A DNA stretch of 64,000 nt from an uncultured bacterium (GTDB lineage: Bacteria; Patescibacteriota; Minisyncoccia; Phycocordibacterales; GCA-2401445), in assembly GCA_937952265.1 (NCBI GenBank), contig CALFYW010000055.1, positions 149,030-213,029 of the forward strand, given 5' to 3'. The stretch's first letter is position 1. The number at the start of each line of letters is the position of its first letter. Below, in pieces: positions 2,914 through 48,991 of this stretch. The notes beneath the pieces were generated by a model. It did not search any database and was not told the DNA's origin. It saw only the letters and a list, made by a program, of their open reading frames with translations. Both the position numbers and the translations under genes were made by a program.

Positions 2914-3468
2914 TTATCGTGGTGCTTCTTGACCCTCCTCTTCTTGGTGTTGAATGCGCTCGATCTCATTTTTGATATTTTCAAACTGAGGGAGCGCTTC
3001 TCTTGACTCTACGCCCAAGAATGAAAGCAGTTCAATGGTTGCCTGATAAAGAAAACCTCGTTGGTCATGTGGATTGTTAATTTTCTCAATTAAACCTCGA
3101 ATCAAAAGATTGCGAAGAATAAACGATGAGTTGACTCCGCGGATATAATCGATTTGCGATCGGGTAACAGGGCCCTGGTAGAGAATAATTGAAAGTGTTT
3201 CGAGCCCAGCACGGCCAATATCTTTTTCCAGTTCTTCTTTAGTAAGCTTCTCTATAATACCAGAAACAAGGGGTGCTGTGGCAAGCGAAACAGATTCGTT
3301 GTTCTCGATAAGCCGTATTCCCCGCTCCTGAAGTTCTTTACGCAGTGTTTCAAGAGCTTCTTTTATTTCACTAGTATTGCTCGAGAGAATTTCTGCAAGC
3401 TCGGAGATCTTCATTGGTTCCCCCTTCCAAAACAATACCCCTTCAATTTTTGCAATGAGCGTATGCAT
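2914..3468 (-). CDS. scpB: Segregation and condensation protein B
   Basis: 184 aa with tandem winged-helix ScpB pattern (ISELAEIL...TLSIILYQGPVTRSQIDYIRG). Immediately downstream of scpA. Confidence 0.9.
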   Translation of the reverse strand: MHTLIAKIEGVLFWKGEPMKISELAEILSSNTSEIKEALETLRKELQERGIRLIENNESVSLATAPLVSGIIEKLTKEELEKDIGRAGLETLSIILYQGPVTRSQIDYIRGVNSSFILRNLLIRGLIEKINNPHDQRGFLYQATIELLSFLGVESREALPQFENIKNEIERIQHQEEEGQEAPR

Positions 3469-3473
3469 GTCTT

Positions 3474-4205
3474 TTAATAACGCGGAGTTTGAACCTCCTT
3501 GCTTTCAATGTGGATATCATCAAAATCTCGATGTTGGGTAACGAGAATTATTCCTCTTTTGACCAATTCAAGCATTGCGAGGAAGCTTACGATCACGGTC
3601 TTTTTGTCGGATTCGTGGTGTGATTTCGAAAAATCTCGAAACGTGAGTTGCATCTGTTGTTGCATTTTTTCTCCCAATCGAGTAATCATTTCCTCAAGAC
3701 TGATTACTTTCTCTACCACTGTCTTTGGGAGGGTTTCCTTTTTAGGGATACGAGAAAGAAGCATCTTTATTGCCCCTTCAAGGGTCTCTTGAGTAATATC
3801 ATTTCCTGGAGTGAAGTATATGTCTTGCTGAGAGAGAATTCTCTGCCGTGGGAATAGTACTGAGGTTCCAAATTTTGATTTAATCTCTCGAGAGACATCC
3901 CTGATGCACTGATAGATCGCAAGGCGTTGCTCGAGATCTTTAATGTCAGTTTGCTCTTCTTCCGTAAGAGAGAGCGTGGGAAGCAGTGATTTTGATTTAA
4001 TGAGGAGGAGCGTTGAAGCAATAAGAATAAACTGCGCAGTATCCGCAGTAGGAAAATCATTGTGTGTTTCGATATAGGTAATAAAATCATCCGTCACTTG
4101 GGCAAGGGAAACATCATTAATGAGCAAACGCCGTTTCTCGATCAAGTTTAAGAGGAGCTCAAGTGGCCCTTCGAAGACGGATGTTTTTACGGTGTACGTT
4201 TGCAT
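3474..4205 (-). CDS. scpA: Segregation and condensation protein A (kleisin)
   Basis: 243 aa; N-terminal FEGPLELLLNLIEKRRL is typical of ScpA. scpA-scpB gene pair. Confidence 0.9.
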   Translation of the reverse strand: MQTYTVKTSVFEGPLELLLNLIEKRRLLINDVSLAQVTDDFITYIETHNDFPTADTAQFILIASTLLLIKSKSLLPTLSLTEEEQTDIKDLEQRLAIYQCIRDVSREIKSKFGTSVLFPRQRILSQQDIYFTPGNDITQETLEGAIKMLLSRIPKKETLPKTVVEKVISLEEMITRLGEKMQQQMQLTFRDFSKSHHESDKKTVIVSFLAMLELVKRGIILVTQHRDFDDIHIESKEVQTPRY

Positions 4206-4207
4206 AA

Positions 4208-5536
4208 TTACGAATGAAGTAAGGTGTCAATACGATGTATATCACGTGGAAAAAGAGACGCCTCTTTTACGTTTTCGATTCCGAGTAAGCGCGCCGTGAG
4301 GCGCTCCAAACCAGTGCCGAATCCTCCATGTGGAGGCATGCCGTATTTAAATGCCTGAAGGTAGAATGAGAATTTCTGAGGATCAAGTTTTTTCTTTTCC
4401 ATCGACCTGAGTAGTTGCTCATAATCATGGATCCGCTGCCCACCAGTAGTGATTTCAAGCCCTCGGAAAAGTAAATCAAAACCTCCCGCGTATCCAGGAT
4501 CATGAGGATCTTCATAGGTATACATCGGCCGTTTTGACAACGGGAAATGGGTAATAAAGATAAAATCCGAATTTAATTTTTCTTTTGCGTAGGTGCCAAT
4601 CCAGCGCTCATGCTGAGGTTCGAGATCGGGTTCATTGCTGATGTTTTGCCCAGTTTCTTTTTCGATCAATGCTTGTGCTTCGCGCAGTTTCATTTGAGGA
4701 ATTTGCTTCGGAATATCGGGGAGTGTTGCGTTAAGGAGTTTGAGTTCGCGCGCGACGTGTTTTTCTAAATAGGTATTGAGGTGGTGTAAGAATTGGGTTT
4801 TGATGTTTGTGATATCCGTGTAGTCACTGATAAAACCCATCTCTGCGTCGAGGCTGGTGTACTCATTGAGATGCCTACTGGTACTGTGGAGTTCAGCACG
4901 GTAGACATTACCAATCGCGAATACTCGCTCATACACGCCGACCATAATCTGTTTATAGAACTGCGGGCTTTGCGCGAGGCTCGCCTGATAGCCAAAATAT
5001 TCTGTTTTGAAAGTCTGTGCTCCACCTTCTGCGTCTTCCCCAATGATTTTTGGCGCTTGTATTTCAGTAAAGAGATTGTGATTAAAAAACTCACGAAATG
5101 CTTGCACGATCGTAGCCTGAATTTTAAAAATAGCCCGAGGGCGTTCAGCCCGTAAGGTAAATGGAAGATGGTCGAGGTATGTTTCTATACCGACATCAGC
5201 GCCTCGCTCGAATGGCAACTCCTGGGCTTTTGATAGGATGGTGATTTCTTCTGCTTCAAGCTCGAGAGTGCCATTCTGCTCACCTTCTTTAACCATCGCT
5301 CTCGGGCGCTCATGAACGGTCCCGAGTACTTGCACGCTCCACTCGGGGCGAATTGTTTGTGCTATCTGATGTACTTCTGGATGTGAAGGAAGGATAACGA
5401 CTTGGAGTTTCCCCGTGAGATCTCGTATTTCAAAAAAGATGAGTTTCCCGTGGTCCCGTCGAATGTTAATTGAGCCCATAATGAGCACCTTCTTTTCAAT
5501 GTGATTTTCTAAATCAGTGAGTAGTATTCGTTCCAT
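4208..5536 (-). CDS. aspS: Aspartate--tRNA ligase, archaeal/eukaryal-type class IIb, probably non-discriminating
   Basis: 442 aa with OB-fold N-terminus. Class II motif 3: YGMPPHGGFGTGLERL, GGQR. The size fits short AspRS2. gatB is present in the window, consistent with an indirect Asn-tRNA pathway. Confidence 0.8.
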   Translation of the reverse strand: MERILLTDLENHIEKKVLIMGSINIRRDHGKLIFFEIRDLTGKLQVVILPSHPEVHQIAQTIRPEWSVQVLGTVHERPRAMVKEGEQNGTLELEAEEITILSKAQELPFERGADVGIETYLDHLPFTLRAERPRAIFKIQATIVQAFREFFNHNLFTEIQAPKIIGEDAEGGAQTFKTEYFGYQASLAQSPQFYKQIMVGVYERVFAIGNVYRAELHSTSRHLNEYTSLDAEMGFISDYTDITNIKTQFLHHLNTYLEKHVARELKLLNATLPDIPKQIPQMKLREAQALIEKETGQNISNEPDLEPQHERWIGTYAKEKLNSDFIFITHFPLSKRPMYTYEDPHDPGYAGGFDLLFRGLEITTGGQRIHDYEQLLRSMEKKKLDPQKFSFYLQAFKYGMPPHGGFGTGLERLTARLLGIENVKEASLFPRDIHRIDTLLHS

Positions 5537-5545
5537 AGAAATATA

Positions 5546-6535
5546 TTAAGCTAATGTAACCCCAATCTTTTTTCGGATAATAGACATGGTCTTTTCTGCT
5601 TGTATTTGAGCTTTTTGAGCGCCTTTATTGAGTATGTCTTCTACTGCCCTCTTTTCTTTTTCGAGCTCACTTCGGCGCGTTCGAAGCGGAGCAATAAATT
5701 TTTCAATGTGCGCTATAAGCATTTCTTTTGATTCATGGTATCCAATATCCCCTTCTTGGTATCGCTTTCGGAGTTCATCGAGTGTTTCGGGTGGGAGGAA
5801 TAGCTTGTGGAGCGAGAAAATAGTACATGTTTCAGGATCTTTAGGCTCAGTTTTCCCTTTTGAGTCAGTAGGAATACTCATAACACCTTTTTCTATTTCT
5901 TCTGGCGAAGCGAAAAGCGGAATCGTGTTTTGGTAGCTCTTACTCATTTTCCGTCCGTCAGTCCCTGGCACGGTTTTTACGTTATCGAGAATAACTGGCT
6001 CAGGAACTGAGAATGTTTCTCCAAATGTTCGATTAAACTCGAGCGTGGTATTTCGTGCAATCTCGATATGTTGTTTCTGATCGCTTCCCACGGGAACATG
6101 GTCCGCGTTATAAAGCAGAATATCTGCGGCCATCAAAATGGGATAGGTAAACGTGCCGACATTAATCTCCTTATTTTTTTCTTTCGCGTCTTTGTATGCG
6201 TGCGCCCGCATCAAATACGGCATGGTAGTAATACAACTAAAAATCCATGCCAGCTCAGCGTGTTGAGAAACACTCGATTGTTTAAAAATCGTAGCCTGTG
6301 TTGGATCAATGCCGACCGCCAGATAATCGAGAGTGATGTCAATAATATTTTTTCTTAGTTCACTCGGGTCATGGAGGGTGGTGAGGGCATGGTAATCCGC
6401 AATGAAGATAAAAGTCTCGTAGCGTTTTTGAAGGTCCACGAGTTGCTTAATCGCACCAAAATAATTCCCAATATGTATTCGCCCGGTTGGTTTTATACCC
6501 GAAAGAAGCCTTTCCCTTTTCATGCTAAAAAGCAT
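5546..6535 (-). CDS. trpS: Tryptophan--tRNA ligase
   Basis: 329 aa class I synthetase. HIGH-type motif (KPTGRIHIGNY) and KMSKS present. Size and motifs match TrpRS rather than TyrRS. Confidence 0.9.
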   Translation of the reverse strand: MLFSMKRERLLSGIKPTGRIHIGNYFGAIKQLVDLQKRYETFIFIADYHALTTLHDPSELRKNIIDITLDYLAVGIDPTQATIFKQSSVSQHAELAWIFSCITTMPYLMRAHAYKDAKEKNKEINVGTFTYPILMAADILLYNADHVPVGSDQKQHIEIARNTTLEFNRTFGETFSVPEPVILDNVKTVPGTDGRKMSKSYQNTIPLFASPEEIEKGVMSIPTDSKGKTEPKDPETCTIFSLHKLFLPPETLDELRKRYQEGDIGYHESKEMLIAHIEKFIAPLRTRRSELEKEKRAVEDILNKGAQKAQIQAEKTMSIIRKKIGVTLA

Positions 6536-6536
6536 A

Positions 6537-6562
6537 GCAAAATTGGGCTAAAGTGGAAAGTG
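6537..6562. repeat. Copy 1 of a 26-bp perfect direct repeat, caaaattgggctaaagtggaaagtgg, with imperfect extension
   Basis: Identical 26-mer recurs at 9211-9236. Both copies lie in intergenic DNA and flank a 2.7 kb segment. Confidence 0.7.
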
Positions 6563-6739
6563 GGACTGTGGGTGGATTATGGAATTCCTCCATCTGATTA
6601 TAAAATCACAAGGTCGGTCACATCCCTTTTAAGTTTTTCGTGGTGTAATTTAATTTATCTTGGTTTATCATAATTTCGTTATCCGTTTTCTATATTGTGA
6701 GTCTTCCTATCGAATCCCCATCAGTAAGGATGACAGATA

Positions 6740-6776
6740 AGAAGAAAACCACCAGTTCATCGGGTGGTTTTTGTCT
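6740..6776 (-). terminator. Putative bidirectional intrinsic terminator
   Basis: Hairpin aaaccacc-agttcatcg-ggtggttt flanked by an A tract on one side and a T tract on the other. Lies immediately downstream of the minus-strand ORF 6787-7515. Confidence 0.5.
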
Positions 6777-6786
6777 TTTTGAATAT

Positions 6787-7515
6787 TTATAACAAGAAAA
6801 AGGCGATAAATAAAAATATTAAAATGAATGTAACTAATTTTATGAAATTAAACAAACATTGTTTCTTTCTATAAATCATACAGAGCTCATTTCCTTCGCG
6901 AACCATTTTCTGTGTAAATTTACCCTTTTTATTATGAAATATATCAATAAAAGTTTCAAGGAACACGAGCCTTTTTCTGAGGTTATACCGGTGAGAATCA
7001 AGGAATACCAAATCATTTGGAACAATGTCTCTAATCACCAATACGGGCGTTGGTGTCCGAAGGGGATACCAATTCTCATTATGTAAGCTCGGCGCTTGAC
7101 TTGTCGGATAAAGAGCTCCTAACATGAGTGCGTGTTGAACACAGTACTCCTTATTATTGAATTGTAGTTCTAGCAACTTCTCAATATCAAATTGTTTAGG
7201 AAACAGGATAATAATGGCTCCAAAATCGTCATTATCTTTTCGTGAAGAGATATAAAATTCAACACATTCTGTAATCAGTCTTGTACAATCCTGCATCGTG
7301 GCGTCCTCGGCAATTGCGGTAAAAAAGATACGTCGCTTCTTTAATGCCGCATGTACAAAAGGGCAAACTTTTCCTTCCCGAAAAGGATGGTCTGCACAGA
7401 GAAATTGCTGTACATACGGTAACACTTCTTTGTACAATGACGTCACGGAATCAGACGTATATTCCTGACCAAAAGTTTCAACTGTCCAGAAATTTGATAC
7501 TGGATCATGTTTCAT
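6787..7515 (-). CDS. Hypothetical protein, 242 aa, with Cys/His-rich segment CADHPFREGKVCPFVH and a hydrophobic C-terminal tail
   Basis: Long ORF with normal codon usage and a terminator downstream. No family recognised from sequence alone. Lies inside the direct-repeat-flanked segment. Confidence 0.55.
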   Translation of the reverse strand: MKHDPVSNFWTVETFGQEYTSDSVTSLYKEVLPYVQQFLCADHPFREGKVCPFVHAALKKRRIFFTAIAEDATMQDCTRLITECVEFYISSRKDNDDFGAIIILFPKQFDIEKLLELQFNNKEYCVQHALMLGALYPTSQAPSLHNENWYPLRTPTPVLVIRDIVPNDLVFLDSHRYNLRKRLVFLETFIDIFHNKKGKFTQKMVREGNELCMIYRKKQCLFNFIKLVTFILIFLFIAFFLL

Positions 7516-7566
7516 AGTTATCCTTTCTCGTGATATGTTAAAGAGCCGTCTCTTTTTTTGTTAAAA

Positions 7567-7600
7567 TCCCCTGAACATATGCAGGCATATGTTCAGGGGA
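7567..7600. promoter_or_regulatory. Near-perfect 34-bp palindrome (16-nt arms tcccctgaacatatgc/gcatatgttcagggga) in a divergent intergenic region
   Basis: Located between divergent genes 6787-7515 (minus) and 8007-9209 (plus). Dyad symmetry is typical of a dimeric transcription-factor operator; it could also fold as a 14-bp RNA hairpin. Confidence 0.4.
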
Positions 7601-8006
7601 TTAACATGTAAGATTGGTTATTTATATTTAAGTACTATAAGTACTACCATTTCCAACCTACGTTATGTGATTGACCCACGCAGAACCAAGAAAAAAATCG
7701 TTTGAAAAAATTTTTCTTGCGCCAGTATCGGTCGGTAAGAACATCGTCTTGTTTGTGTGGGGTAACAAATATGACAGATTTTGGATCAGCGAATTCTGAT
7801 GGCATTAATTTATCCTCCGGGTTCATATATTTTCGCTCCATCTCGTCTCTCACAGACTACGCATTTACATTATCTGTCTGTAAAGATACCAAACAAAATA
7901 AAGACTTTTTTAAATGCTAATTCTATGATAGACTCTAATCTGTATCCTGTCAATAGAAACATTAGGTACACTTTTTACAGGATCTTTTTATATTTAAAAA
8001 TGTTTT

Positions 8007-9209
8007 ATGACAAATTTGGAAAAAGCAAGACATAATGTTCTGAGAGAAAATCCGGATTTACCCATGACGCTTAGGTTTGAAGTTTCCCCATCGGAAACCG
8101 TTAACAGACTTTTATCAGTTGTGGATCTTACCCTAGATGACGAAATTAATAACAAAGAGAAAAATATAATTGGTCAAATATACAACCAAATTCTTGTAAA
8201 ATTACGAGAATATAGATTTCCTAACATTACAATTATACGCGGAAACCCTATAGTTAGTGTCGAAGATAATTTTGATAACCTTTTGTTTTCTCCCGGAAAT
8301 CCGGGCAGATCATCAACATATACGCGCTATACTGATGAAGATCATGTATTGAGAACTCATACTTCCGCACTTGTGCCGAGTACATTCAGAAAATTGCAAA
8401 ATAAGCAGAACCCAATGACATTTGTTTTTCCGGGGTTAGTGTATAGGCGCGATGTAATAGACCCCAAGCATCTAGACGTGTTTCATCAACTTGATGTATG
8501 GACTTTACAAGAAAATAAAACGTACGGCACCGCTAATAGAAAGGATTTACTAAGATTGGCAAAGGCTATATTTGAAGCCGCTTGTCCGGGCGCCACAATG
8601 ATAGTATATGAAGCACAACACCCGTACACTATTGATGGTATTGAGGTATATGCGGAAGTAGAAGGACAAAAAATAGAAGTTCTTGAAGCGGGGCTTGCTC
8701 ATCCTGGGGTCTTAAAAAAAGCAGGCATTGATCCACAGCAATACTCAGGACTTGCACTCGGTATGGGGATTGAAAGACTAATCATGGCAAGAAAAGTTTT
8801 GCCGGATATTAGGTTAATTCGTTCAGCTGATCCGCGCATTGTTAAACAAATGACCAATATGGAGAAGTTTGTTTCGGTGTCCAATCAGCCAGCTATGACC
8901 AGGGACATGTCTTATTGTGTTGACAGAAATGATACTGAGGAAGATATTTGTGAAGCAATTAAGGATGCATTTGGAGAAAATAGAGACCTTCTAGAGCAAG
9001 TAGAAGTATTAGAAAGAACGCCTTTTCAGGAGTTAAATTCAGCAGCAAGAAACAGGTTAGGAGCAAATGAAAATCAAGATAATATTTTGGTGAGAATCAC
9101 TTTACGTCACCCTGACAAATCACTTACCAAAGAACAGGCTGCGATATTGTATACTGAGGTGTATCCCAAAATCCATCAAGGAACAACGGAAGGATATCGA
9201 GTTAAATAA
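8007..9209 (+). CDS. Monomeric mitochondrial-type phenylalanyl-tRNA synthetase-like protein (PheS-like class II core fused to C-terminal FDX-ACB anticodon-binding domain)
   Basis: Motif 2 (FPGLVYRRDV...FHQLDVW) and motif 3 (GLALGMGIERLIMARKVLPDIRLI) align to PheS of this same window ([43 protein letters not shown]). C-terminal 100 aa (QPAMTRDMSYCV...ILVRITLRHPDKSLTKEQA) parallels the FDX-ACB domain at the PheT C-terminus (YPFVVRDIAIFV...YAFRLIFQDYAKTLSDAEV). The 400-aa length matches FARS2-type monomeric PheRS. Confidence 0.75.
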   Translation: MTNLEKARHNVLRENPDLPMTLRFEVSPSETVNRLLSVVDLTLDDEINNKEKNIIGQIYNQILVKLREYRFPNITIIRGNPIVSVEDNFDNLLFSPGNPGRSSTYTRYTDEDHVLRTHTSALVPSTFRKLQNKQNPMTFVFPGLVYRRDVIDPKHLDVFHQLDVWTLQENKTYGTANRKDLLRLAKAIFEAACPGATMIVYEAQHPYTIDGIEVYAEVEGQKIEVLEAGLAHPGVLKKAGIDPQQYSGLALGMGIERLIMARKVLPDIRLIRSADPRIVKQMTNMEKFVSVSNQPAMTRDMSYCVDRNDTEEDICEAIKDAFGENRDLLEQVEVLERTPFQELNSAARNRLGANENQDNILVRITLRHPDKSLTKEQAAILYTEVYPKIHQGTTEGYRVK

Positions 9210-9210
9210 C

Positions 9211-9236
9211 AAAATTGGGCTAAAGTGGAAAGTGGA
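9211..9236. repeat. Copy 2 of the 26-bp direct repeat caaaattgggctaaagtggaaagtgg
   Basis: Identical to 6537-6562. Lies immediately after the stop of the PheRS-like gene. Confidence 0.7.
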
Positions 9237-9254
9237 GATTGGGAGAGCTTCAAA

Positions 9255-10853
9255 CTACTCTGTCGTTTGGAGTTCTACAATGAAAGAAGAACCTTTCCCT
9301 TCCCCTTCCGATTCAGCCCATACTTTACCTTTATGTGCCTCAACAAGTTGGCGCGCAACATAGAGTCCGAGCCCTGTTCCAAGTACATTTACCTTGTTTG
9401 CGTTATATGCCCTGCTGAATTTTTCAAATAACACGGCAATCGTTTCTTTAGACATGCCAATTCCTGTGTCTTTGATCGTAACACGGATTTTCTGCCCCAT
9501 TCGCTTGATAGTTACTACCACTTCCCCATGAGGAGTGTATTTAATTGCATTATCAATCAGATTACCAATCACTTGCTTCATCTTTCCCATATCAGCATGT
9601 ACAAAAAACCTCGATGCTTCAGGTGGGTTAAAGTAGATTTTAATCCCTGCCCGCTTTGCGGTTGGATCGCTCTCTTTTATCACTTCATCGATAAGCTCTT
9701 TCATATCAAAGCGAGAAAAATGAAATTTCATTGTTCCTTGTTCAATACGAGATACGTCCAAAAAATCATTAACCACAAACGTGAGAGAGTTTGCTGATTG
9801 GAAAATACGATTGATAGCTTCCCGTATTTTTTCTTGAGCTATTTCTCCAAACGAGCCCTCGAGGAGGAGCGAAGAATAGCCCTTGATAGCGGTAAGCGGT
9901 GCCCTAATCTGATGTGTTGCAATGGATATGAATTCTGATTTTTGCTTATCCAATTCCCGCAATTTGCTATTGGTAGTTTTCAAATCATCTGCCAAAGACT
10001 CAATCTTCTCTCTTGAGTCTACTTCTCGATAGACCCCCTTTATGAGTAAATAACTAAAGATTGTGATTGCGATAAGAATCAAAGCCTTTATTAAGATGTT
10101 TGTTGGTGATTCTTCAATAAATATTTCAACAAAAAGTACGGTGATAATAATAATTGAAAAAAGCTCTGTAACAAGAACTTTTATATTAAATAAATGGTAT
10201 TTTAAAATAGCGATAAAAATAGCAGAAACTAGAATTACTGAAAATAGAGGACCAACCCATGTGAATTCAAAAATTTTAAATACTGGCAAAATTAAATTTG
10301 TAAAGAGTGCCAAAGAAGAAGAGATTATTAATCCTATAGAGATTAATCTGATCTGATCTTTTGATTTTTGAGATGCGTTTTCGTGTTGTTTTAAAAGTAG
10401 AAGATAAGCACCAAAGAAATAAAATATTACTAAAAGCTGATACAAGGGATATCCATTTTTTAGTTCATAGGTAGCAGTGGTTGCCTCCATCGGAGGAGCA
10501 ATGATTGAGTCAGTTAGGAATAGGAAAAATAACATTACACAAAATGGTATAAGTACAGAAAAATAAAATAATCTTCCGGAGAATATTTTATTAGGGAAAA
10601 TATTAGAAAATAAGAAAACAATTAATCCTGTAAATAACGCTGTCGAGTGTGTCCATGCCAGCCATTCAATGTCTAAAAGATAGCTTCTAGAGTAAAACCC
10701 TACAATGCTTACACACCAACCAGCCACTCCTAGAGATAAAAAACCGAACAAAATATTGAAAGAATTTCTCAGCCCACGTGAGAGAATGATAACAGAAAGT
10801 ATTATGTTTATAACAACAGTTATAAGTAGTAGTGGTATGATGATTTCTTGCAT
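9255..10853 (-). CDS. Sensor histidine kinase with multi-pass N-terminal membrane domain (HisKA + HATPase_c)
   Basis: At least 8 predicted TM helices, then H-box ATHQIRAPLTAIKGY, N-box and G-boxes (DTGIGM...GTGLGLYVARQLVEAH). No response regulator is adjacent in the window. Confidence 0.9.
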   Translation of the reverse strand: MQEIIIPLLLITVVINIILSVIILSRGLRNSFNILFGFLSLGVAGWCVSIVGFYSRSYLLDIEWLAWTHSTALFTGLIVFLFSNIFPNKIFSGRLFYFSVLIPFCVMLFFLFLTDSIIAPPMEATTATYELKNGYPLYQLLVIFYFFGAYLLLLKQHENASQKSKDQIRLISIGLIISSSLALFTNLILPVFKIFEFTWVGPLFSVILVSAIFIAILKYHLFNIKVLVTELFSIIIITVLFVEIFIEESPTNILIKALILIAITIFSYLLIKGVYREVDSREKIESLADDLKTTNSKLRELDKQKSEFISIATHQIRAPLTAIKGYSSLLLEGSFGEIAQEKIREAINRIFQSANSLTFVVNDFLDVSRIEQGTMKFHFSRFDMKELIDEVIKESDPTAKRAGIKIYFNPPEASRFFVHADMGKMKQVIGNLIDNAIKYTPHGEVVVTIKRMGQKIRVTIKDTGIGMSKETIAVLFEKFSRAYNANKVNVLGTGLGLYVARQLVEAHKGKVWAESEGEGKGSSFIVELQTTE

Positions 10854-10857
10854 AAAA

Positions 10858-11562
10858 TTATTTTAAAGCAGTGTTTAGAACAGCTTGCTTGGCGTAAAGA
10901 TATTCAGGTTTGGAAATCTTCTGAAACCCAGCTGATCTTAAGAGTGACTCTTGTTTTTGCGCACTTAGAAAGGCGTAATTTTTATTCCTGTTTTCTTTTC
11001 TTATAAGATAATTGTAATAAAAAATTCTTATAGTAGGAAGAAGTAGTCGTGTTACCTGAATAATAGTTTTTAGGGTTCCATGTTTTTTTCTCATCTTTTT
11101 TAAATGTTCCAGATATATTTTTTTAGGAGAAAATCCGTCTTGTATATTACTAAGAATGATTTTTCCCTTTGGGCGTAAGATTCTGTAGAATTCCAACAAA
11201 ACCATTTTCTGTTTCTCGGAGGAGATTGTGTAAAGTGTATTGTTTGAAATGATTTTATCAAAAGAATTGTCTTTAAAAGGAAGTCTCTTTGTTAAGTCAC
11301 CTAAAATAATTACTGCTTCAGGGTCTTTTTGTTGGTGTAGACGAGTTCCTTGGGGGGAAAAATCAAAAGAGGTGACTTTTGCACGAGTTTCTCTTAATCT
11401 AACAGAGAGATTCCCTGTTCCTGATCCTGCATCTAAAATAAGTTCTCCTTCTTTTGGATCGGCAACGTTTGTTATTTTTTCTATTAATTCCGAATACGGA
11501 ATAAGATTATTTAATAAATCGTAATCTTGAAAATATTTTTCCCAAAATTTTTCAGTTAACAT
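10858..11562 (-). CDS. Class I SAM-dependent methyltransferase
   Basis: Motif I ILDAGSGTGNLS, acidic motif II and motif III. 234 aa. Confidence 0.85.
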   Translation of the reverse strand: MLTEKFWEKYFQDYDLLNNLIPYSELIEKITNVADPKEGELILDAGSGTGNLSVRLRETRAKVTSFDFSPQGTRLHQQKDPEAVIILGDLTKRLPFKDNSFDKIISNNTLYTISSEKQKMVLLEFYRILRPKGKIILSNIQDGFSPKKIYLEHLKKMRKKHGTLKTIIQVTRLLLPTIRIFYYNYLIRKENRNKNYAFLSAQKQESLLRSAGFQKISKPEYLYAKQAVLNTALK

Positions 11563-11574
11563 AAAAGTTCATCC

Positions 11575-12336
11575 TTACTTAATAACTCCAAGCATTCTTA
11601 AGAAATGGGTATAAGGGTTTGATTTCAATCGAAATTCCCTTCCAGAGTTTTCTTTCTCAAAGATCAACTTATTGTCTGTAACTTTTGATAAATATTTTTT
11701 ATATTCTTGGGTTAGAAAGTAGAATGGGGCGACTGTGTCTGTTGGTTGATAGAAATATTTACTAAGTTTTGCATTTTTGGGATACAAAAGTGCGTAATTA
11801 TTTATAGGATGAAGAGGAAATTTTAACTTTTCCATTTTTGTCTCTAGACTATTTTTTAGAAAGAAATAACCTCCCTGTATATTATTTTCCTCGCTGTATT
11901 TCATCAGAGAATCAAGAATAAATAACATTGTTAAGTTTCGAGGTAGGAATTCACCAATTTCCTCATGTGTGGGTTTTATGACAAACCTACTTAATTCAGC
12001 GATTGACCCACTTTTTTTTAGTTCTTTTATTTGATCCGGTTCGTCAAATTTAAAAAATTTTTCAGTTGGTAATGGGTTTGTTTTAATCAAACGAATTGTT
12101 CCAAAAATTTTTTTATTAACACAGGCTATGAAATAAATACAAGAACCGTCTTCATCAAAAGAGTCTTTCTCAGATTCGTCTGGAAAATCTTTCTGATCAA
12201 TATATTCTTTTTTTAAATAGATTTGATATCTTAACCTATGGACACTTTCCTGCTCTTGTTTTTGGTCTGCTATTCCGAAGGTTAGGATATGCTCTTTGTT
12301 TTTTATTTCTAAGGTTAATGATGTGCTGACTTTCAT
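11575..12336 (-). CDS. GNAT-fold N-acyltransferase of the OlsB / N-acyl amino acid synthase family (lyso-aminolipid synthase candidate)
   Basis: N-terminal pattern LRYQIYLKKEYID...DSFDEDGSCIYFIA...IFGTIRLI...IAELSRFVI matches the Acetyltransf_5/OlsB-FeeM family signature. Adjacent to a PlsC-like O-acyltransferase. Confidence 0.6.
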   Translation of the reverse strand: MKVSTSLTLEIKNKEHILTFGIADQKQEQESVHRLRYQIYLKKEYIDQKDFPDESEKDSFDEDGSCIYFIACVNKKIFGTIRLIKTNPLPTEKFFKFDEPDQIKELKKSGSIAELSRFVIKPTHEEIGEFLPRNLTMLFILDSLMKYSEENNIQGGYFFLKNSLETKMEKLKFPLHPINNYALLYPKNAKLSKYFYQPTDTVAPFYFLTQEYKKYLSKVTDNKLIFEKENSGREFRLKSNPYTHFLRMLGVIK

Positions 12337-12354
12337 CTATATATTTTAGTGTTA

Positions 12355-13035
12355 TTACACAGACTTTGTCTCTTTGAGAGAATAAACCGCGTTCATAATT
12401 TTTTCTGCAATTTTGTGTAGGGCTTCAACGGATTGGTTACTATCTTCAGTGAATTCCATTTTTTTACCAAAAGAAACAATGGTCTTTTTTTTACCAGAAT
12501 TTTTTTCTCTCGTGTGGTGAATGTGAACAGGTATGACAGGTGTCTTTGTGTACGTTGCTAGAAACGCAACACCTCCGTGCACAATGGTTGCCCTTTCTGC
12601 TTCTGGTTTATTAAATTTCCCTTCAGGAAAGATACATAAATTATAACCCAATTTAAGAATTTGAATATGGTCTTGAAGCGACCATTTATAATCTTTCTTT
12701 CCAGGGTGTGTCGCGTATCCGCCAACAACCTCAAAGAATTTTCCACCATAAAAATAAGATCGGATGCCAAATCTTTCTGATGATTGGTAATTTTTTTTCG
12801 GAAGCGCGACAAAATAAAATGGAGAGAAACGAGAAAAGATCGGGAGTGCCGCTCGAATAAGGATCGGGTCAAGTTCAGTCGTATGATTGGCAGCAAAAAT
12901 CGCATTGGACCTCATCTCCGAGAGGTTTTCCATCCCCTTTACTTGAAAGCCTCGAGTAAGTGAGATGACTATTTTAGTGGAGATGAAAAAAAAGGGCTGA
13001 AGGAGTAAAGGCATCCAGTATAAAATTTTTTTCAT
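12355..13035 (-). CDS. Lysophospholipid acyltransferase (PlsC family; OlsA-like O-acyltransferase candidate)
   Basis: HX4D motif (NHTTELDP) and FPEG motif (CIFPEGKF). N-terminal membrane anchor. Confidence 0.75.
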   Translation of the reverse strand: MKKILYWMPLLLQPFFFISTKIVISLTRGFQVKGMENLSEMRSNAIFAANHTTELDPILIRAALPIFSRFSPFYFVALPKKNYQSSERFGIRSYFYGGKFFEVVGGYATHPGKKDYKWSLQDHIQILKLGYNLCIFPEGKFNKPEAERATIVHGGVAFLATYTKTPVIPVHIHHTREKNSGKKKTIVSFGKKMEFTEDSNQSVEALHKIAEKIMNAVYSLKETKSV

Positions 13036-13195
13036 AATGTTACTTTCCTATTTTATACCACGTCTCTCACATCCTGAACAGTTCTGGTGCAATATTTAGA
13101 CACCGGAGGCAACTATTTTTTTAACCATTTTCTTTGGCCATATGAATTTTTTTTACCTCTTGTATATCCCACTGTGTTCATTTTTACCGTATGGT

Positions 13196-13804
13196 TCAAA
13201 TTTTAACACAAATTGGAACTGTTAAATCTTTTGGTGAGACGGGAACTGAAAATAAAACCCTCGTCTTTCTATTTGAAACGTACTCTTTATTTGTTTTCTT
13301 TTTGAAATCTGAACCAGAGACAATATGTATATATCCATCTTTAAATTTCGAAGGACCATTAATAAATCCAAGAGAGATCGAAAGTTTAATTGGTCGAGAT
13401 TTGGGAGTATGCACTGAAGCTCCTCCGGACTCTCGAATATCCAAGATTGCCAGAAAGATTGCGTAATTAGGGTCATCTGTTGCGTATACGAGATTCAGTG
13501 ATTCCTTCTTCCCGTCTTGATCTACGGATGTATTTGGTTCCAACATAGTAAGCATGTTCGTCGATCCGTGAAAGAGGATGGTGCTCGATACAAATTTAGG
13601 TAATATGCAATTGTTTTTTTCGCAAAAAACATAGAATCTCTGAAGATGTCTCTTTTGTTGAATATGGAAAAGAAACTCAACCGTGCTTGAAAGTTTATTT
13701 TGTTTTTTGAAATCCTGTAATAAATTTTTGGAGATTAACGTGTTGTTTTGCATAGAGAATATAATATCAGGAAACGAAGACCCTAAAAAGAGAAGGGAAA
13801 GCAT
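13196..13804 (-). CDS. Hypothetical protein (202 aa)
   Basis: ORF only; no family recognised. Confidence 0.45.
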   Translation of the reverse strand: MLSLLFLGSSFPDIIFSMQNNTLISKNLLQDFKKQNKLSSTVEFLFHIQQKRHLQRFYVFCEKNNCILPKFVSSTILFHGSTNMLTMLEPNTSVDQDGKKESLNLVYATDDPNYAIFLAILDIRESGGASVHTPKSRPIKLSISLGFINGPSKFKDGYIHIVSGSDFKKKTNKEYVSNRKTRVLFSVPVSPKDLTVPICVKI

Positions 13805-14028
13805 TTTGCTTTCCCTTCTGTGATTTTAATATGTACTCTTCTGACTAGGTTTTACCGTATTTCCCCCAACCTTTGTCCCACCCTTTCTGCCAGTTCATAA
13901 GATTAGCAGATCGCGGCTCAGAGATTTTTATGTTACTGTCACGTTCTTGTTCTAGATCATAAGCCCTTTGGGAGAGCTCCTCGAGACTTTCTTTTTGTCT
14001 CGCAATTCGTTCCTCCAGTATTTTTTTT

Positions 14029-14394
14029 TCATAAACGGTTCTTTTGATTAGGTATTTTTTGATTCGAGTTCCTGAAGAATGCGCACCAGTATTCATTGAT
14101 AAGTGTTGCATTGGTTTGAATAGCGTGTTGTACAAGACCTTTTTCACGCAAATCTTCAAATGGAATAATGAGTTTCTTGAGATATGCCAGACCGCAAGCC
14201 AAGGGTTCCCCGGCATGCCATATGAGCTCAACACCATTGTCAAGCATGCCTATATCTTGAGCAATCCTTTCTGCTATGTGTAGTGACATTCTCCGATTTT
14301 TATCTCGATCTGGGAGGTAACAGTAACTACAGTTAAGATTGCAGAGTTGAGTTGGCTGCATGACTAGCCGTTCAATAGAAAATTTAATGTTCAC
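14029..14394 (-). pseudogene. Disrupted radical-SAM/SPASM maturase gene (anSME-like); only the N-terminal ~120 aa with intact CxxxCxxC remain in frame
   Basis: Translation QPTQLCNLNCSYCYLPDRD...IWHAGEPLACG...IQTNATLINEYWCAFF tracks the N-terminus of anaerobic sulfatase-maturase-type enzymes. Homology is lost exactly where the frame ends; homologs are about 370 aa. An overlapping ORF, 13845-14243, lies in another frame, and its C-terminus is not radical-SAM-like. Confidence 0.5.
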
Positions 14395-14573
14395 AACAAC
14401 ATCCTTTATGTTAGGAGACTCAAATAACAGATTATTTTAGTTTGTCAATTGATGCATACAAAATCGTTCTGACATAATAATAGTATATATAGAAAAACCA
14501 GTCAATAGTTTGTGGTTTAGATTATTCTAATGTGTTAGAATGAGAATTATTTATTTTAAGAAGTGTATACGAT

Positions 14574-38136: not shown

Positions 38137-38397
38137 TTATAATACGGGAAGCCCAGGATCAGAAATCTGTTGAGGTTTTGAGCTAGCAGGATCTTCCCCC
38201 CCAAACCCCACAAAAAAAGTAGTTACAATCATGACCATTGCTAACCCAATGAGTATGATATTCGCCTGTGAATTTGTTTTCGCAAGCTTTGCTTTAATGA
38301 GCCATTGCACCATTCTAGGTGCTTTAGCGGATGGTTCAATTCGGCTATAGAGAATCTTCCGCTCACTACTTTCTCCTTCAAATTGTACGTCTACCAT
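38137..38397 (-). CDS. Small single-pass membrane protein, paralog A (MVDVQFEG family)
   Basis: 86 aa with a C-terminal TM. Shares its N-terminal motif and about 28 nt of DNA at the start region with the adjacent ORF. Confidence 0.5.
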   Translation of the reverse strand: MVDVQFEGESSERKILYSRIEPSAKAPRMVQWLIKAKLAKTNSQANIILIGLAMVMIVTTFFVGFGGEDPASSKPQQISDPGLPVL

Positions 38398-38414
38398 AAA
38401 AAATATTTACTAGA

Positions 38415-38657
38415 CTAATAAATTAAATATATATTTTTTGAAATCCAATACAGTATCATCCCTCCCATCGCCACAAGCATTAACATAGAAAATCTGAAAA
38501 GAATTTGCTTTGCTTTTTTTTCATTTTGAGCAAGGCGCAACTTCAACAGGTACTTTACCAAGACGGGCGTACGATCTAGGACATCCGCGACATCACGTAA
38601 AAACTCACCCTCTTGTTCAAATTTTCTATTCTTTCCTTCAAATTGTACGTTTACCAT
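38415..38657 (-). CDS. Small single-pass membrane protein, paralog B (MVNVQFEG family)
   Basis: 80 aa; tandem duplicate of 38137-38397. Confidence 0.5.
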   Translation of the reverse strand: MVNVQFEGKNRKFEQEGEFLRDVADVLDRTPVLVKYLLKLRLAQNEKKAKQILFRFSMLMLVAMGGMILYWISKNIYLIY

Positions 38658-38725
38658 AAAAATGATCTGATGCGCGTCCCCTCATAGCCTGTTATAATGC
38701 CATAACGCTTACCATTAATTCTACT

Positions 38726-43184: not shown

Positions 43185-43245
43185 CCCTCCCCACCAGTCA
43201 ACCTGCCAGGTTGACTGGTGGGGAGGGCTTATTTGCTGGTTTTTA
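43185..43245. terminator. 43-bp GC-rich perfect palindrome (21-bp arms around a single C) followed by a T run; strong bidirectional terminator-like element at the left edge of the GC-rich island
   Basis: ccctccccaccagtcaacctg c caggttgactggtggggaggg, then cttatttgctggttttt. Confidence 0.6.
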
Positions 43246-43282
43246 AAGTATGCCCGAGGTCAAATCTCAGGCAGGATGCTAA

Positions 43283-43311
43283 TTGACACTATTATAATAA
43301 TCTTGTAGTAT
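43283..43311 (+). promoter_or_regulatory. Putative sigma-70 promoter driving the GC-rich gene
   Basis: TTGACA, then 17 nt, then TAGTAT. It sits in AT-rich DNA immediately before the base composition switches to GC-rich at about 43320. Confidence 0.4.
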
Positions 43312-43319
43312 TTTTTTAG

Positions 43320-43463
43320 TTACGCACCTTGTAAGAAGCAAAGTATCTGCCATAGCAGAAAGTGTCTGATTCCTCGGGCCTTTTCTGCTATGGCAAACCT
43401 GCAATAAGCAGTCAGGCCCACTGGCAAAAATCGCGACTTTCTGTCGCAGAAGAGGAGACTACC
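43320..43463 (+). ncRNA. Structured 5' leader of the GC-rich gene: 13-bp long-range inverted repeat gccatagcagaaa/tttctgctatggc plus smaller stem-loops, ending in a strong Shine-Dalgarno AGGAG
   Basis: Inverted repeats at 43340-43352 and 43383-43395. ctgcaataagcag mini-hairpin. AGGAG sits 6 nt before the ATG at 43464. Class unknown; possible riboregulator or attenuator. Confidence 0.3.
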
Positions 43464-44036
43464 ATGAGTGAGGTTACTCTCGATGTCGGCCTGGCTTACA
43501 AGATTAAGCAAGCTCTTTCCCGCAACGGAATCCCCGACGTTGCCGACCTTGATTGGCTGGTAACTGGCGACAACATCGCCAAGATGCGTCGGGTGCGACT
43601 CGGCCACGCCGAAATCGTCATCACCGAGCATGTGATCGACTGCGACGCCGAGCCGCTCATCCCGGACCGCTGGTATGTCGAGGAGCACCAGAAAGGCGGT
43701 GCATTCAAGTGGAGCGCCGAAGGCGTGACGCTCTATCTCGACAAGAGGCAGAAAAACGGAAAGTGGATCGATGGAAACGAACTCCGCCAAGCGCTGGCAA
43801 TGAAGCCAGTACTGAACGCCAATGTTCTCGATTACCTGCTCGCCCATCCGCACCTCATTCCCGAGGAGTGGAAGGACAAGGCCGTTTTCTTTTGGGGAAC
43901 GATCTACCGCGAGTGGAACGGCGACCCCTACGTCCGTTACCTCGACTGGTACGGCGATAGGTGGGGCTGGAGCGCCCGCTTGCTCGACGGCGACTGGAGC
44001 GATGTCTACAACACCGCCGCGGTTCCTGCAAGCTGA
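43464..44036 (+). CDS. Hypothetical Trp-rich protein (190 aa) encoded in a GC-rich (55-67% GC), compositionally foreign segment
   Basis: Strong RBS and ATG. ORF MSEVTLDVGLAYKIKQALSRNGIPDVADLDWLVTGDN...YLDWYGDRWGWSARLLDGDWSDVY. Followed by a canonical intrinsic terminator. No family recognised. Confidence 0.6.
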   Translation: MSEVTLDVGLAYKIKQALSRNGIPDVADLDWLVTGDNIAKMRRVRLGHAEIVITEHVIDCDAEPLIPDRWYVEEHQKGGAFKWSAEGVTLYLDKRQKNGKWIDGNELRQALAMKPVLNANVLDYLLAHPHLIPEEWKDKAVFFWGTIYREWNGDPYVRYLDWYGDRWGWSARLLDGDWSDVYNTAAVPAS

Positions 44037-44074
44037 ACTCGACTTTGGATTTTTGAGTTGTTGCACTTGAATCC

Positions 44075-46233: not shown

Positions 46234-48180
46234 TTATCGCACCTGCCAACCGCTTATTTCTTCTACTTTCTGGCTTATTTTCCCCATACAATCATTGACT
46301 TCAGCATCAGAAAGTGTCTTCGCGTAATCTTGGAATATAAGGCGAAAAGCATAAGAGACGCGGTCATCCTTTTTGAACGTGTCAAAAATATAGAGCTTCT
46401 GAAGCCGCACCCCGGCATGCTCCATGATGAGTTTGGAAACATGAGAGGAGGTTACTTCTTCTGGTACAAAGATAGCGATATCGCGAACCACAAACGGATA
46501 TACTGAAGGCTTGCGATAGACTACCCCCTCTTTTCCTGCCGGGAGCATACTGAGTAATTGATCGGGCGACTCTTCCAACTGTAGAGGAGCCTCTTTCGGT
46601 GCCTCCGTAAGCGAAAACTTATAGATGAGAATGCCATCCTTCACGGTGCTCTCTTTTTCAATTGGAGGTAATACCATTGAAAATGTATTTTCGATCGCGC
46701 CCCGAACTTGGTGAAGAATACTATCCGTATTGAGTTTATTATTTTTTATTCCCGATATCGCAAGCGCAACCGATGTATGTTCTCCTTCTTTTGGGAATAC
46801 CGTTCCAATCTCGAAAGCGTGTATCGCTTCCACGCCAAGAAGATCCTGATTGTGCACGTTCCGAACCATCGCCTCAAAGAGGGTGTCTTTAAGCGAAGCG
46901 CGTAGAAAGGCTCGGTCCTTTGCGATTGGGTTTAATAATTTCTGCACCCCTTCTGGAGCAAATGAGCTTGTGTAAAGCTCAGAAAATCCTTGTTGGATAA
47001 GAAAAACTTTTAAACGATTCTCATAGGAAAAATGAAAATCGAGTGGCATATCTCCTTTTTCTTTTTTAGGAAGCACTCCTTTCACATGCTCGTATCCATA
47101 GATACGCCCAACTTCATCTATAATATCTTCGGCGATCACAACATCAGCCCGTTCTGGAGGAGGGTTACTCACCACAAAACCATTATCAATGCGCGGTTCC
47201 ATCTCTAATTGAGTTAGAATTCCGAGAATTTCTTCTTCACGAAGCGAAATACCGAGCACCTCTTCAAAGAGAGTAAGTGAAGTTTTTACGCTGACCTGGG
47301 AAGGTTTTGAAGGAAACCAGTCATATCGAGATCCAAAACGCGCGTCAGGAAAAAAGTGGTGTATATATGAGATGAACTGATCAATACCTTTCTCCGCGCG
47401 AAACGGATTAACCTTGTTTTCAAAACGTTTTGCCGCGTCACTTAAAAGATTCAATCGGCGCGCTGTCTTTCTAATAGCCACTGAATCAAAATTTGCAGAT
47501 TCAATAATCACCGCATTTGTCGATGACGTAACTGCCGCACGTGCTCCTCCTTTAATCCCCGCAATGGCGAGTACTCCTTTTTTATCAGCAATCACTACAT
47601 CACTCTCTCCGAGCTCTCTTGGGCTTTCTTCACCAATTAGTAGAACTTCTTCCCCGTGAGAGGCAAAACGAATTACCAACTCACCATCCACCTTATCCGC
47701 GTCAAAGACATGGAGCGGTTGCCCCATATCAAACATGATGTAATTCGCCATATCAACTAAGGGATGAATTGATCGCTCATTGATACTCTGAAGCCTCTGC
47801 AGTATTTCAGTAAGGTCTGCTTTTAAAGGGAGCGCTATTCCTTCGACACGCTGAGCAATATAGCGCGTGGCCGGCACCCCATCCCGAACTGAAACCCGGA
47901 CTTCAGAAACCTCGTGGCTAATTGTTGGGGTTTTTAAAACACGCTCATGATAGGGAGTATTAAAGATTGCGTGAAGTTCATACGCGACGCCTTTATGGCA
48001 CAGCGCGTAGGAAGCACGGTCCGGAAGAATAGAGATATCAAAAATAGTATCTGTTTCTCCTTTTCTCACTTTTTCAATTTCAAAAGATCGGCGATTGAGA
48101 AAATCCGCAACCTCTTCTGCCTTGGGTAAAGGTTCTTTAAAAAATGAAGAAAGCCATTGATATGAATACGATGCCAGCAT
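46234..48180 (-). CDS. pheT: Phenylalanine--tRNA ligase beta subunit (short form)
   Basis: B3/B4 and B5 domains and C-terminal FDX-ACB domain. Translationally coupled downstream of pheS. Confidence 0.9.
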   Translation of the reverse strand: MLASYSYQWLSSFFKEPLPKAEEVADFLNRRSFEIEKVRKGETDTIFDISILPDRASYALCHKGVAYELHAIFNTPYHERVLKTPTISHEVSEVRVSVRDGVPATRYIAQRVEGIALPLKADLTEILQRLQSINERSIHPLVDMANYIMFDMGQPLHVFDADKVDGELVIRFASHGEEVLLIGEESPRELGESDVVIADKKGVLAIAGIKGGARAAVTSSTNAVIIESANFDSVAIRKTARRLNLLSDAAKRFENKVNPFRAEKGIDQFISYIHHFFPDARFGSRYDWFPSKPSQVSVKTSLTLFEEVLGISLREEEILGILTQLEMEPRIDNGFVVSNPPPERADVVIAEDIIDEVGRIYGYEHVKGVLPKKEKGDMPLDFHFSYENRLKVFLIQQGFSELYTSSFAPEGVQKLLNPIAKDRAFLRASLKDTLFEAMVRNVHNQDLLGVEAIHAFEIGTVFPKEGEHTSVALAISGIKNNKLNTDSILHQVRGAIENTFSMVLPPIEKESTVKDGILIYKFSLTEAPKEAPLQLEESPDQLLSMLPAGKEGVVYRKPSVYPFVVRDIAIFVPEEVTSSHVSKLIMEHAGVRLQKLYIFDTFKKDDRVSYAFRLIFQDYAKTLSDAEVNDCMGKISQKVEEISGWQVR

Positions 48181-48874: not shown

Positions 48875-48918
48875 GTAGGGGATTATATCAAAAAGTCTTG
48901 TCTCACCGAAATCTCTAG

Positions 48919-48991
48919 AGCCACCTGTCAGGCTTGAACTGACGACCTACGGTTTACAAAACCGTTGCTCTACCAACTGAGCTAAGGTGGC
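48919..48991 (-). tRNA. tRNA-Thr (anticodon UGU); CCA not encoded
   Basis: Minus-strand GCCACCTTAGCTCAGTTGGTAGAGCAACGGTTTTGTAAACCGTAGGTCGTCAGTTCAAGCCTGACAGGTGGCT. 7-bp acceptor stem, D arm, anticodon loop TTTGTAA, TTCAAGC T-loop. Confidence 0.85.

Follow-up and report, generated by a model that had tools for sequence, protein, structure and literature searches.

A 2,646-bp segment of DNA lies between trpS, the gene for tryptophanyl-tRNA synthetase (TrpRS), and the gene for a sensor histidine kinase (HK) in an uncultured bacterium of the Patescibacteria. We consider it likely that this is an accessory two-gene segment that was inserted between HK and trpS, and that it is bounded by duplicated host sequence. 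The stretch analyzed here, 64,000 nucleotides of contig CALFYW010000055.1 (the window, 64 kb), is core chromosome of a Paceibacteria-like member of the phylum, with rpoBC, dnaE, dnaG, gyrB, smc, ribosomal protein genes and pheST. The segment is flanked by two perfect copies of a 26-nt sequence and holds a 242-aa open reading frame (ORF) of the DUF6875 / cytochrome P422 family on the minus strand and a PheRS-like gene, srmL, on the plus strand; the first-pass annotation had described the former as a hypothetical gene with Cys/His motifs and the latter as PheRS-like. The features at its two junctions are the following, with the loci of relatives given by their L numbers.

5546-6523, minus strand: trpS, the host gene beside the insertion, identified by Pfam and by NCBIfam TIGR00233; the ORF is annotated from 6535
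6531-6536, minus strand: TATGCT, the predicted -10 hexamer of the trpS promoter, close to but outside the exact repeat and 7 nt before the ATG at 6523-6521; kept in L182, L184, L009, L014 and L006
6538-6563, minus strand: direct repeat copy 1, an exact match; from the trpS promoter it includes the predicted -35 box TTTCCA (6559-6554), a spacer of 16 nt and the TG belonging to the extended -10
6564-9209, no strand: inserted segment, 2,646 bp, delimited by synteny with L182/L183, L184, L009 and L014 and by GC values
9210-9235, minus strand: direct repeat copy 2, abutting the srmL stop and 19 nt past the HK stop; a putative orphan promoter fragment, running antisense into srmL
9236-9254, minus strand: host spacer of 19 nt between the HK stop and repeat copy 2
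9255-10853, minus strand: HK with a seven-transmembrane N-terminal domain, the host gene on the other side, orthologous to the kinase that immediately precedes trpS in relatives

On its minus strand the window reads HK, copy 2, insert, copy 1, trpS, aspS, scpA, scpB, S11 peptidase, GT4. In L182/L183, the closest relatives with genomic context (TrpRS 65% identical), the order is HK, 59 nt, trpS, aspS, scpA, scpB, S11 peptidase, GT4, FtsW, MurG. HK also directly precedes trpS in L184 (TrpRS 63% identical; 32 nt between them), in L009 (32 nt, with aspS, scpA and scpB following) and in L014 (41 nt). At the level of gene order the site is unoccupied in L182/L183, L184, L009 and L014, and the earlier suggestion that the segment is an insertion is borne out by this comparison of the junction, in which HK and trpS are adjacent, with a spacer of 32-59 nt, in four relatives. 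The window HK is 39% identical to that of L182 over 499/532 residues, membrane domain included (E 3e-113), and 38% identical to that of L014 over 394 residues. In L186 and L008, HK lies a few genes off from trpS.

When the insert (6564-9209) and one repeat copy are deleted from the window, the distance between the HK stop and the trpS ATG at 6523 becomes 19+26+14 = 59 nt, which is the length of the L182 spacer. The empty site reconstructed in this way reads, on the minus strand, ...GAAGCTCTCCCAATCT-CCACTTTCCACTTTAGCCCAATTTTG-CTATGCTTTTTAGCATGAAAAGG, and the junction expected for a circular form of the segment reads, on the plus strand, ...GGATATCGAGTTAAATAA-CAAAATTGGGCTAAAGTGGAAAGTGG-GACTGTGGGTGGATTATGG. 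The locus shows another rearrangement in L184, where a perfect 55-nt direct repeat (3662-3716 / 3817-3871, 155 nt apart) is located where the full-length HK meets an HK fragment just upstream of trpS; this points to a local duplication at the same locus as the window insertion.

The repeat itself is exact and, within the window, confined to the two junctions. The 26-mer CAAAATTGGGCTAAAGTGGAAAGTGG on the plus strand, which reads CCACTTTCCACTTTAGCCCAATTTTG on the minus strand, was found by a scan of the window at 6538-6563 and 9210-9235. The first-pass annotation had seen this perfect repeat, with coordinates one base off (+1 for the first copy, -1 for the second), and had added an imperfect extension of which the common part is only TGGG and is not significant. 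Leftward, the repeat can be extended to 30 nt if one mismatch (ATAG/ATAA) is allowed. Only 2 nt separate copy 1 from the annotated trpS ATG, and 14 nt separate it from the ATG at 6523 that is probably the true start; the start of copy 2 abuts the TAA stop of srmL. No third copy is present in the window at ≤3 mismatches, no degenerate copy was recovered there by sub-motif searches or blastn-short, and 100 shuffles of the sequence gave 0 matches. The two copies were expected to be a pair specific to this segment rather than a common intergenic motif, and within the window they are. As for further copies in related genomes, the exact 26-mer has 0 matches in the GTDB representatives and the JGI metagenomes, two collections from which this genome is apparently absent, and only the two copies of the window were seen. 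Both copies are found in each of the Logan assemblies of SRR7515932 and SRR7515933, and the SRR7515930 assembly has two contigs with one copy apiece, all 100% identical to the window; since the repeat (26 nt) is shorter than the assembly k-mers, it is not an assembly artefact.

Other identities for the repeat were considered. RNA folding of both repeat contexts gives no structure, which rules out a terminator or a repetitive extragenic palindromic (REP) hairpin, and Rfam finds nothing over 6300-9500 at the gathering threshold or at E≤1, which rules out a riboswitch, T-box or leader. Members of the REP-like class have many copies at unrelated intergenic sites and are usually palindromic; the 64 kb searched here contain two copies of the 26-mer, without predicted structure. 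Nor is it a native flank of srmL: conservation of the 26-mer in the 3' flanks of 49 srmL homolog loci is no better than random, and it is therefore host sequence.

The nature of this host sequence becomes clear on the minus strand, where the 26-mer is the -35 box, spacer and TG of the predicted trpS promoter. The repeat is not an arbitrary target; this role, missed in the first-pass annotation, emerges from alignment with relatives. Comparison of N-termini with those of relatives makes the ATG at 6523 the likely start of trpS. When the reconstructed spacer is aligned with those of L182, L184, L009, L014 and L006, a conserved T-tract with TGnTAnnAT is found 6-12 nt before the trpS ATG (in the same six-genome alignment the motif just upstream of the ATG can also be written TTTTTG[C/G]TAT[T/G]AT), and this is, by its consensus, a predicted extended -10 promoter. 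The window version is ATTTTG-C-TATGCT, 7 nt, then ATG, and L006 shares the -35 box TTTCCA at 17-nt spacing. The pheS gene of the same window has the same geometry (TTTTTGATATAAT, with the elements TTTTTG-A-TATAAT, then 7 nt and ATG), and at srmL a -10-like box ends 5 nt before the ATG. The two repeat copies cease to be identical at the -10 hexamer or within it: TATGCT and trpS adjoin copy 1, and TATTTA, which is without the conserved final T of the -10 box, adjoins copy 2, with no minus-strand ORF behind it. The 26-mer is not shared with other promoters of the window. As a separate observation, the trpS, srmL and pheS promoters (6521-6563, 7974-8009, 48875-48900) all have a T-tract, TGn and a -10 box that ends 5-7 nt before the ATG, and they lack a Shine-Dalgarno sequence; this layout suggests leaderless mRNAs in this organism.

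The features inside the segment are listed below.

6739-6771, minus strand: intrinsic-terminator-like hairpin just after the DUF6875 stop, with UUUUCUUCUU behind a CCACC/GGUGG stem (fold -14.5 kcal/mol, z -4.1)
6787-7515, minus strand: DUF6875 / cytochrome P422 family gene, 242 aa (Pfam PF21780, 109 bits vs a cut-off of 24.5)
7565-7602, no strand: perfect inverted repeat with 18-nt arms (7565-7582 / 7585-7602) and a 2-nt loop, between the 69-aa ORF and DUF6875 (fold -29.3 kcal/mol, z -9.1)
7644-7853, minus strand: 69-aa ORF without a family match, called as a gene in the Logan annotation
7925-7953, minus strand: putative sigma-70-like promoter, the best in the divergent spacer (TTGACA-17-TATCAT, 11/12), facing the 69-aa ORF and DUF6875; from a consensus scan only
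7974-8001, plus strand: promoter-like site (TTTACA-16-AAAAAT) ending 5 nt before the srmL ATG; from a consensus scan only
8007-9209, plus strand: srmL, a PheS-related 'mystery ligase' of 400 aa (NCBIfam NF051887, 377.1 bits vs a cut-off of 300; tRNA-synt_2d and FDX-ACB by Pfam; sequence matches in the PDB)

With putative promoters in the spacer and a terminator-like hairpin after DUF6875, the interior of the insert looks like self-contained transcription units. The divergent spacer (7516-8006) is 491 nt long with a GC content of 0.34, in agreement with the AT-rich spacer of about 490 bp noted earlier. The perfect palindrome reported within it is present, with a size of 38 nt (two 18-nt arms plus 2 nt) and not 34; it may be a terminator or an operator. 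The right edge of the insert is the natural srmL stop codon, and the C-terminus ...GYRVK matches homologs. In several srmL homolog 3' flanks that were inspected a hairpin directly follows the stop; here none does. Cas1 is not found in the window, and the segment has no nucleotide similarity to known plasmids and phages. The GC content of the insert is 0.368, compared with 0.427 +/- 0.04 for the genes of the window and with a range of 0.42-0.46 among core genes. GC was set aside as a marker of the insert, being uninformative alone when the neighbouring block is lower still. That block lies upstream of HK (window 9700-14500, GC 0.29-0.38) and encodes a methyltransferase, an FeeM-like N-acyl amino acid synthase, an acyltransferase and two hypothetical proteins; it is a second variable region, absent from the HK-upstream regions of relatives.

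Both genes of the segment have the character of accessory cargo. DUF6875 has lately been renamed cytochrome P422, a family of thiolate-ligated haem proteins that hydroxylate tryptophan (bioRxiv 10.64898/2025.12.11.692455; also PMC13307353). The window protein has the haem-thiolate motif REGKVCP (RxGxVCP) and the substrate motif RDIVPNDLVF (SBR1-like), both as defined in bioRxiv 10.64898/2025.12.11.692455. It is a member of the P422 family by sequence, with haem binding and tryptophan oxidation as predicted properties. The 49 homologs detected are patchily distributed (Peribacteria, Pseudomonas, Acinetobacter, Burkholderiales) and very rare in Patescibacteria; some homologs, in Moraxella, Rhizobium and Streptomyces, are plasmid-borne.

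SrmL combines a class II core with a C-terminal FDX-ACB domain, the architecture of monomeric mitochondrial PheRS, and is 65-73% identical to more than 100 Patescibacteria proteins. It scores below the cut-offs of pheS (TIGR00468; 107 vs 237) and pheS_mito (124 vs 258). Relative to PheS, its pocket is changed from FPFTEPS to HPYTIDG and from GFAFG to GLALG, and the motif 2/3 arginines are kept (PGLVYRRD, GMGIERL). Canonical pheT (648 aa, 46234-48180) and pheS (48182-48874; TIGR00468 at 291.5 bits) are encoded on the minus strand of the window, and SrmL is therefore an extra PheS paralog beside a normal PheRS. This pheS is N-terminally short (230 aa), and tRNA-Thr(TGT) at 48918-48991 (minus strand) precedes pheST. 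Since DUF6875 is rare, patchy and elsewhere plasmid-borne, srmL is detached from its usual cluster and canonical pheST is present, the cargo is taken to be accessory.

At many srmL loci a second SrmL paralog, a pyridoxal-phosphate (PLP) decarboxylase and a GFO/IDH/MocA oxidoreductase stand alongside; none of the three is encoded in the 64-kb window. In a recurrent neighbourhood (L090 1-8185, L132 1-8206, L093 6001-8462, L102 4042-6864), the paralog is about 370 aa long and 40-46% identical, and the PLP-dependent decarboxylase and GFO/IDH/MocA oxidoreductase are accompanied by two uncharacterized proteins; the SrmL paralogs are often adjacent and convergent. SrmL-like genes of near full length and about 37% identity are also found in LR745206.1 (613824-614906), a 635-kb 'uncultured phage' record, and in L179 (7001-8086), a 415-kb IMG/VR contig. 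A literature search on 'SrmL' or monomeric PheRS in Patescibacteria found nothing relevant.

Several other explanations of the repeat-flanked segment have to be weighed. It is in our view very unlikely that the copies of the 26-mer flank the segment by coincidence of function, as a promoter or regulatory module that is used repeatedly or as a REP-like element. Such a module would fit the promoter character of the 26-mer, whose copies were counted within the 64-kb window, and L102/L103 offer a precedent: three near-identical promoter modules of about 26 nt (TTTTTTTTATGGCATAATTTAGGTATG; L102 1599-1630, 7000-7018 and 9261-9286) stand before three different genes within 8 kb, and thus promoter reuse or duplication does occur in the phylum. 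However, identity among the L102 modules runs through the -10 box to the gene ATG. In the window the identity ends at the -10 box, and copy 2 serves no gene: behind it come TATTTA and no ORF read in the same direction. The restriction to two copies at ≤3 mismatches, the lack of the 26-mer at the other window promoters and the absence of secondary structure and of an Rfam match also argue against a module, which would in addition leave the break in synteny unexplained. A chance match or an assembly artefact has a negligible probability: the expectation for a 26-nt exact direct repeat in 64 kb is about 5e-7, shuffles gave 0, and the identical arrangement is present in assemblies of three sequencing runs with a repeat shorter than their k-mers.

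Two further alternatives accept the repeat as significant and differ on its history. The DUF6875-srmL segment and its repeats could be ancestral; recombination of one repeat with the other would then have removed the segment from the relatives in which HK adjoins trpS. Such a deletion between 26-bp direct repeats would produce exactly the reconstructed single-copy spacer, and HK lies a few kb from srmL in L125 and L132. Even so, this history is improbable, as at least four lineages, with TrpRS only 51-65% identical to that of the window, would each have had to lose the segment precisely and independently, and a perfect 26/26 non-coding identity is not expected to last over such divergence. The 83 srmL loci examined are usually in a different gene cluster and none has trpS nearby, DUF6875 is very rare in the phylum, and the GC content of the insert is below the core value. 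We also think it quite unlikely that an integrase of a transposase- or casposase-like kind cut the target with a 26-nt stagger and so made the repeat as a target-site duplication. The duplicated sequence is host-derived and has sharp edges, and long target duplications are known from Cas1-family integrases, of 14-15 bp with casposons and of a whole CRISPR repeat with Cas1-Cas2. On the other hand, the target duplications of bacterial transposons are normally about 2-14 bp and so usually shorter than 26 bp, the segment has no terminal inverted repeats, no transposase or Cas1 was found in the window, and the insert ends exactly at a stop codon and not at a recognizable element end.

Some observations weigh against an insertion by duplication of host sequence, and they limit what can be said of its mechanism. 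The trpS genes of other relatives have different upstream neighbours, and the ancestral state rests on 4-5 lineages. Among 5.8 billion proteins the closest TrpRS is 66% identical, and GTDB relatives reach at most 61%; a nucleotide-level empty site is therefore not obtainable, and the emptiness of the site rests on gene order. The contigs on record with the same TrpRS, HK or SrmL include no empty-site, excised or alternative arrangement, all being clonal and occupied. The low GC content is not specific to the insert, as HK and the block to about 14 kb are even lower. The count of only two copies of the 26-mer covers the 64-kb window. No terminal inverted repeats link 6564-6600 with 9170-9209, and Pfam scans of ORFs ≥150 aa detected no integrase, transposase or tyrosine or serine recombinase in 64 kb, so that the nearby integrase that had been thought worth looking for was not found. 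Of the proposal that the segment arrived as an att-like, site-specific mobile module, the insertion and the accessory cargo stand; with no integrase, terminal inverted repeats, plasmid or phage similarity or empty-site variant, site specificity and mobility stay conjectural. The element appears to be non-autonomous and fixed in the sampled population.

For the insertion that we favor, the following course of events can be proposed. The ancestral chromosome would have carried, on one strand, HK, a short spacer with the trpS promoter, and trpS-aspS-scpA-scpB. Foreign DNA of 2,646 bp and lower GC content, with the divergent DUF6875/SrmL pair under its own promoters and a terminator after DUF6875, would then have entered the spacer, leaving 26 bp of the host promoter (the -35 box, the spacer and the TG of the extended -10) at both junctions. 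The trpS-proximal copy would abut the -10 hexamer, such that the essential trpS-aspS-scpAB operon keeps a complete promoter, and the distal copy would be an orphan half-promoter directed antisense into srmL. Because the duplicated core keeps the essential trpS promoter whole, the insertion may have been tolerated. As to the origin of the duplication, our best guess is that a circular DNA with about 26-30 bp in common with the spacer integrated by a single crossover (Campbell-type), possibly catalyzed by a recombinase encoded elsewhere or by RecA; 26 bp is reportedly near the minimal length for RecA recombination in E. coli. Alternatively, the duplication could have arisen by fill-in of a long staggered break. 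The locus would represent a clean gene gain, dated by synteny, in a reduced Patescibacteria genome, and it shows how a cell can withstand an insertion in an essential gene's promoter if the promoter core is duplicated.

The wider set of srmL loci was compared with respect to both the gene pair and the repeats. Among the 83 srmL loci, one (L136, 536-2328) has a genuine DUF6875 gene (Pfam 67.5 bits, motif RSGKVCP) as the divergent neighbour of srmL, and none has trpS nearby, the usual context being a different gene cluster. In the Peribacteria L095/L096 (L095 6001-8584), DUF6875 adjoins true pheS. This location of DUF6875 beside a PheS-family gene, seen in three lineages of Patescibacteria, is infrequent but recurs; it hints at functional coupling and is a lead only. 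A 252-aa neighbour in L087 was rejected as a DUF6875 homolog. Direct repeats of at least 20 nt are found at 15/68 srmL loci, compared with 8/74 TrpRS loci and 0/13 Patescibacteria TrpRS loci. Repeats that specifically bracket srmL are present at 6 loci, compared with 4.6 +/- 1.35 for random placement, which is not significant; only the overall enrichment stands. In L105, a direct repeat of about 88 nt (1127-1210 / 3413-3495) around the srmL segment is a copy of a host gene 3' end, as is the 72-nt repeat of L115 (85-156 / 4192-4263), and the 41-nt repeat present three times in L087/L099 (L087 1095-1135 / 8471-8511 / 10004-10044) likewise consists of host gene 3' end copies.

In addition, the repeats at L105, L115 and L087, all of them metagenomic contigs, comprise the host gene 3' end plus its terminator, and L087 also has a duplicate of a His_Phos_1 gene (89% aa identity), with an IS200-type Y1 transposase and an AbiEii gene inside. 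In L095, direct repeats of about 150-210 nt (5043-5191 / 9120-9249; 82-89% identical, with GC-rich hairpins) flank a 4-kb block of a Peribacteria genome (phosphoribosyltransferase, DUF6875, pheS, small ORF), and these could be REP-like elements. The window itself has two other repeat features away from the insertion: a perfect hairpin with 21-nt arms (43185-43227) beside a stretch of 0.56 GC (z +3.3) with overlapping ORFs on both strands and no Pfam match (43185-44066), and a 37-nt direct repeat, 89% identical and 260 nt apart (38366-38402 / 38626-38662), in the 512-nt gap from a pilin-like gene to dnaE.

A bolder reading, which we hold to be a speculative one with a small chance of being right, is that P422 and SrmL are a functional pair. 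A modified aromatic amino acid (e.g., hydroxy-tryptophan) would be the product of the haem enzyme, SrmL, with HPY for FPF in its pocket, would ligate this product to tRNA or another acceptor, and srmL segments would spread in Patescibacteria by an unrecognized, integrase-independent insertion that duplicates tens of bp of host promoters or gene ends. We raise it because of the L136 pair, the DUF6875-pheS neighbours of Peribacteria, the proportions of repeat loci (15/68 vs 0/13) and the 41-88-nt duplications at L105, L115 and L087. As to the substrate of SrmL, its location next to a P422-type tryptophan-modifying enzyme and trpS is a concrete lead that can be tested. Taken with the srmL loci elsewhere that are rich in repeats, the locus suggests that srmL sits in recombination-prone regions of Patescibacteria genomes.

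The two genes can be compared with the families to which they belong. The window DUF6875 gene is like cytochrome P422 in its Pfam membership, its RxGxVCP and SBR1-like motifs and its tryptophan-related neighbour, trpS. It differs in that the SBR2 motif Dx2(Q/H)x3K of bioRxiv 10.64898/2025.12.11.692455 is not clearly present, in its host phylum, Patescibacteria, which is not in the list of that paper, and in having no redox partner or biosynthetic cluster nearby. Unlike NF051887 SrmL elsewhere, the srmL of the window stands alone, without its usual partners, and is paired with DUF6875 instead.

As an element, the segment differs from an integron gene cassette in lacking an attC-like structure after the srmL stop and, in the Pfam scans, an integrase. 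It resembles the target-site duplications of transposons and insertion sequences in that a short host sequence lies on both sides of the inserted DNA, though here the duplication is 26 bp and not about 2-14 bp, and neither terminal inverted repeats nor a transposase accompanies it. In layout it is like attL/attR islets and integrative mobilizable elements, in which foreign, lower-GC accessory cargo likewise lies between perfect direct repeats of host-derived sequence, the site is empty in relatives (here at the level of gene order), and the host function at the target is saved by the duplicated sequence. Unlike these, the segment has no integrase in or near it, is only 2.6 kb long, shows no excision product or polymorphism among the contigs on record, and has a promoter as its target rather than a tRNA or gene 3' end. 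We conclude that it is a small genomic islet, real and of a fairly ordinary kind, with unusual cargo. What sets it apart is the duplicated target, a promoter core, and the cargo, which places SrmL together with a P422 enzyme beside trpS.

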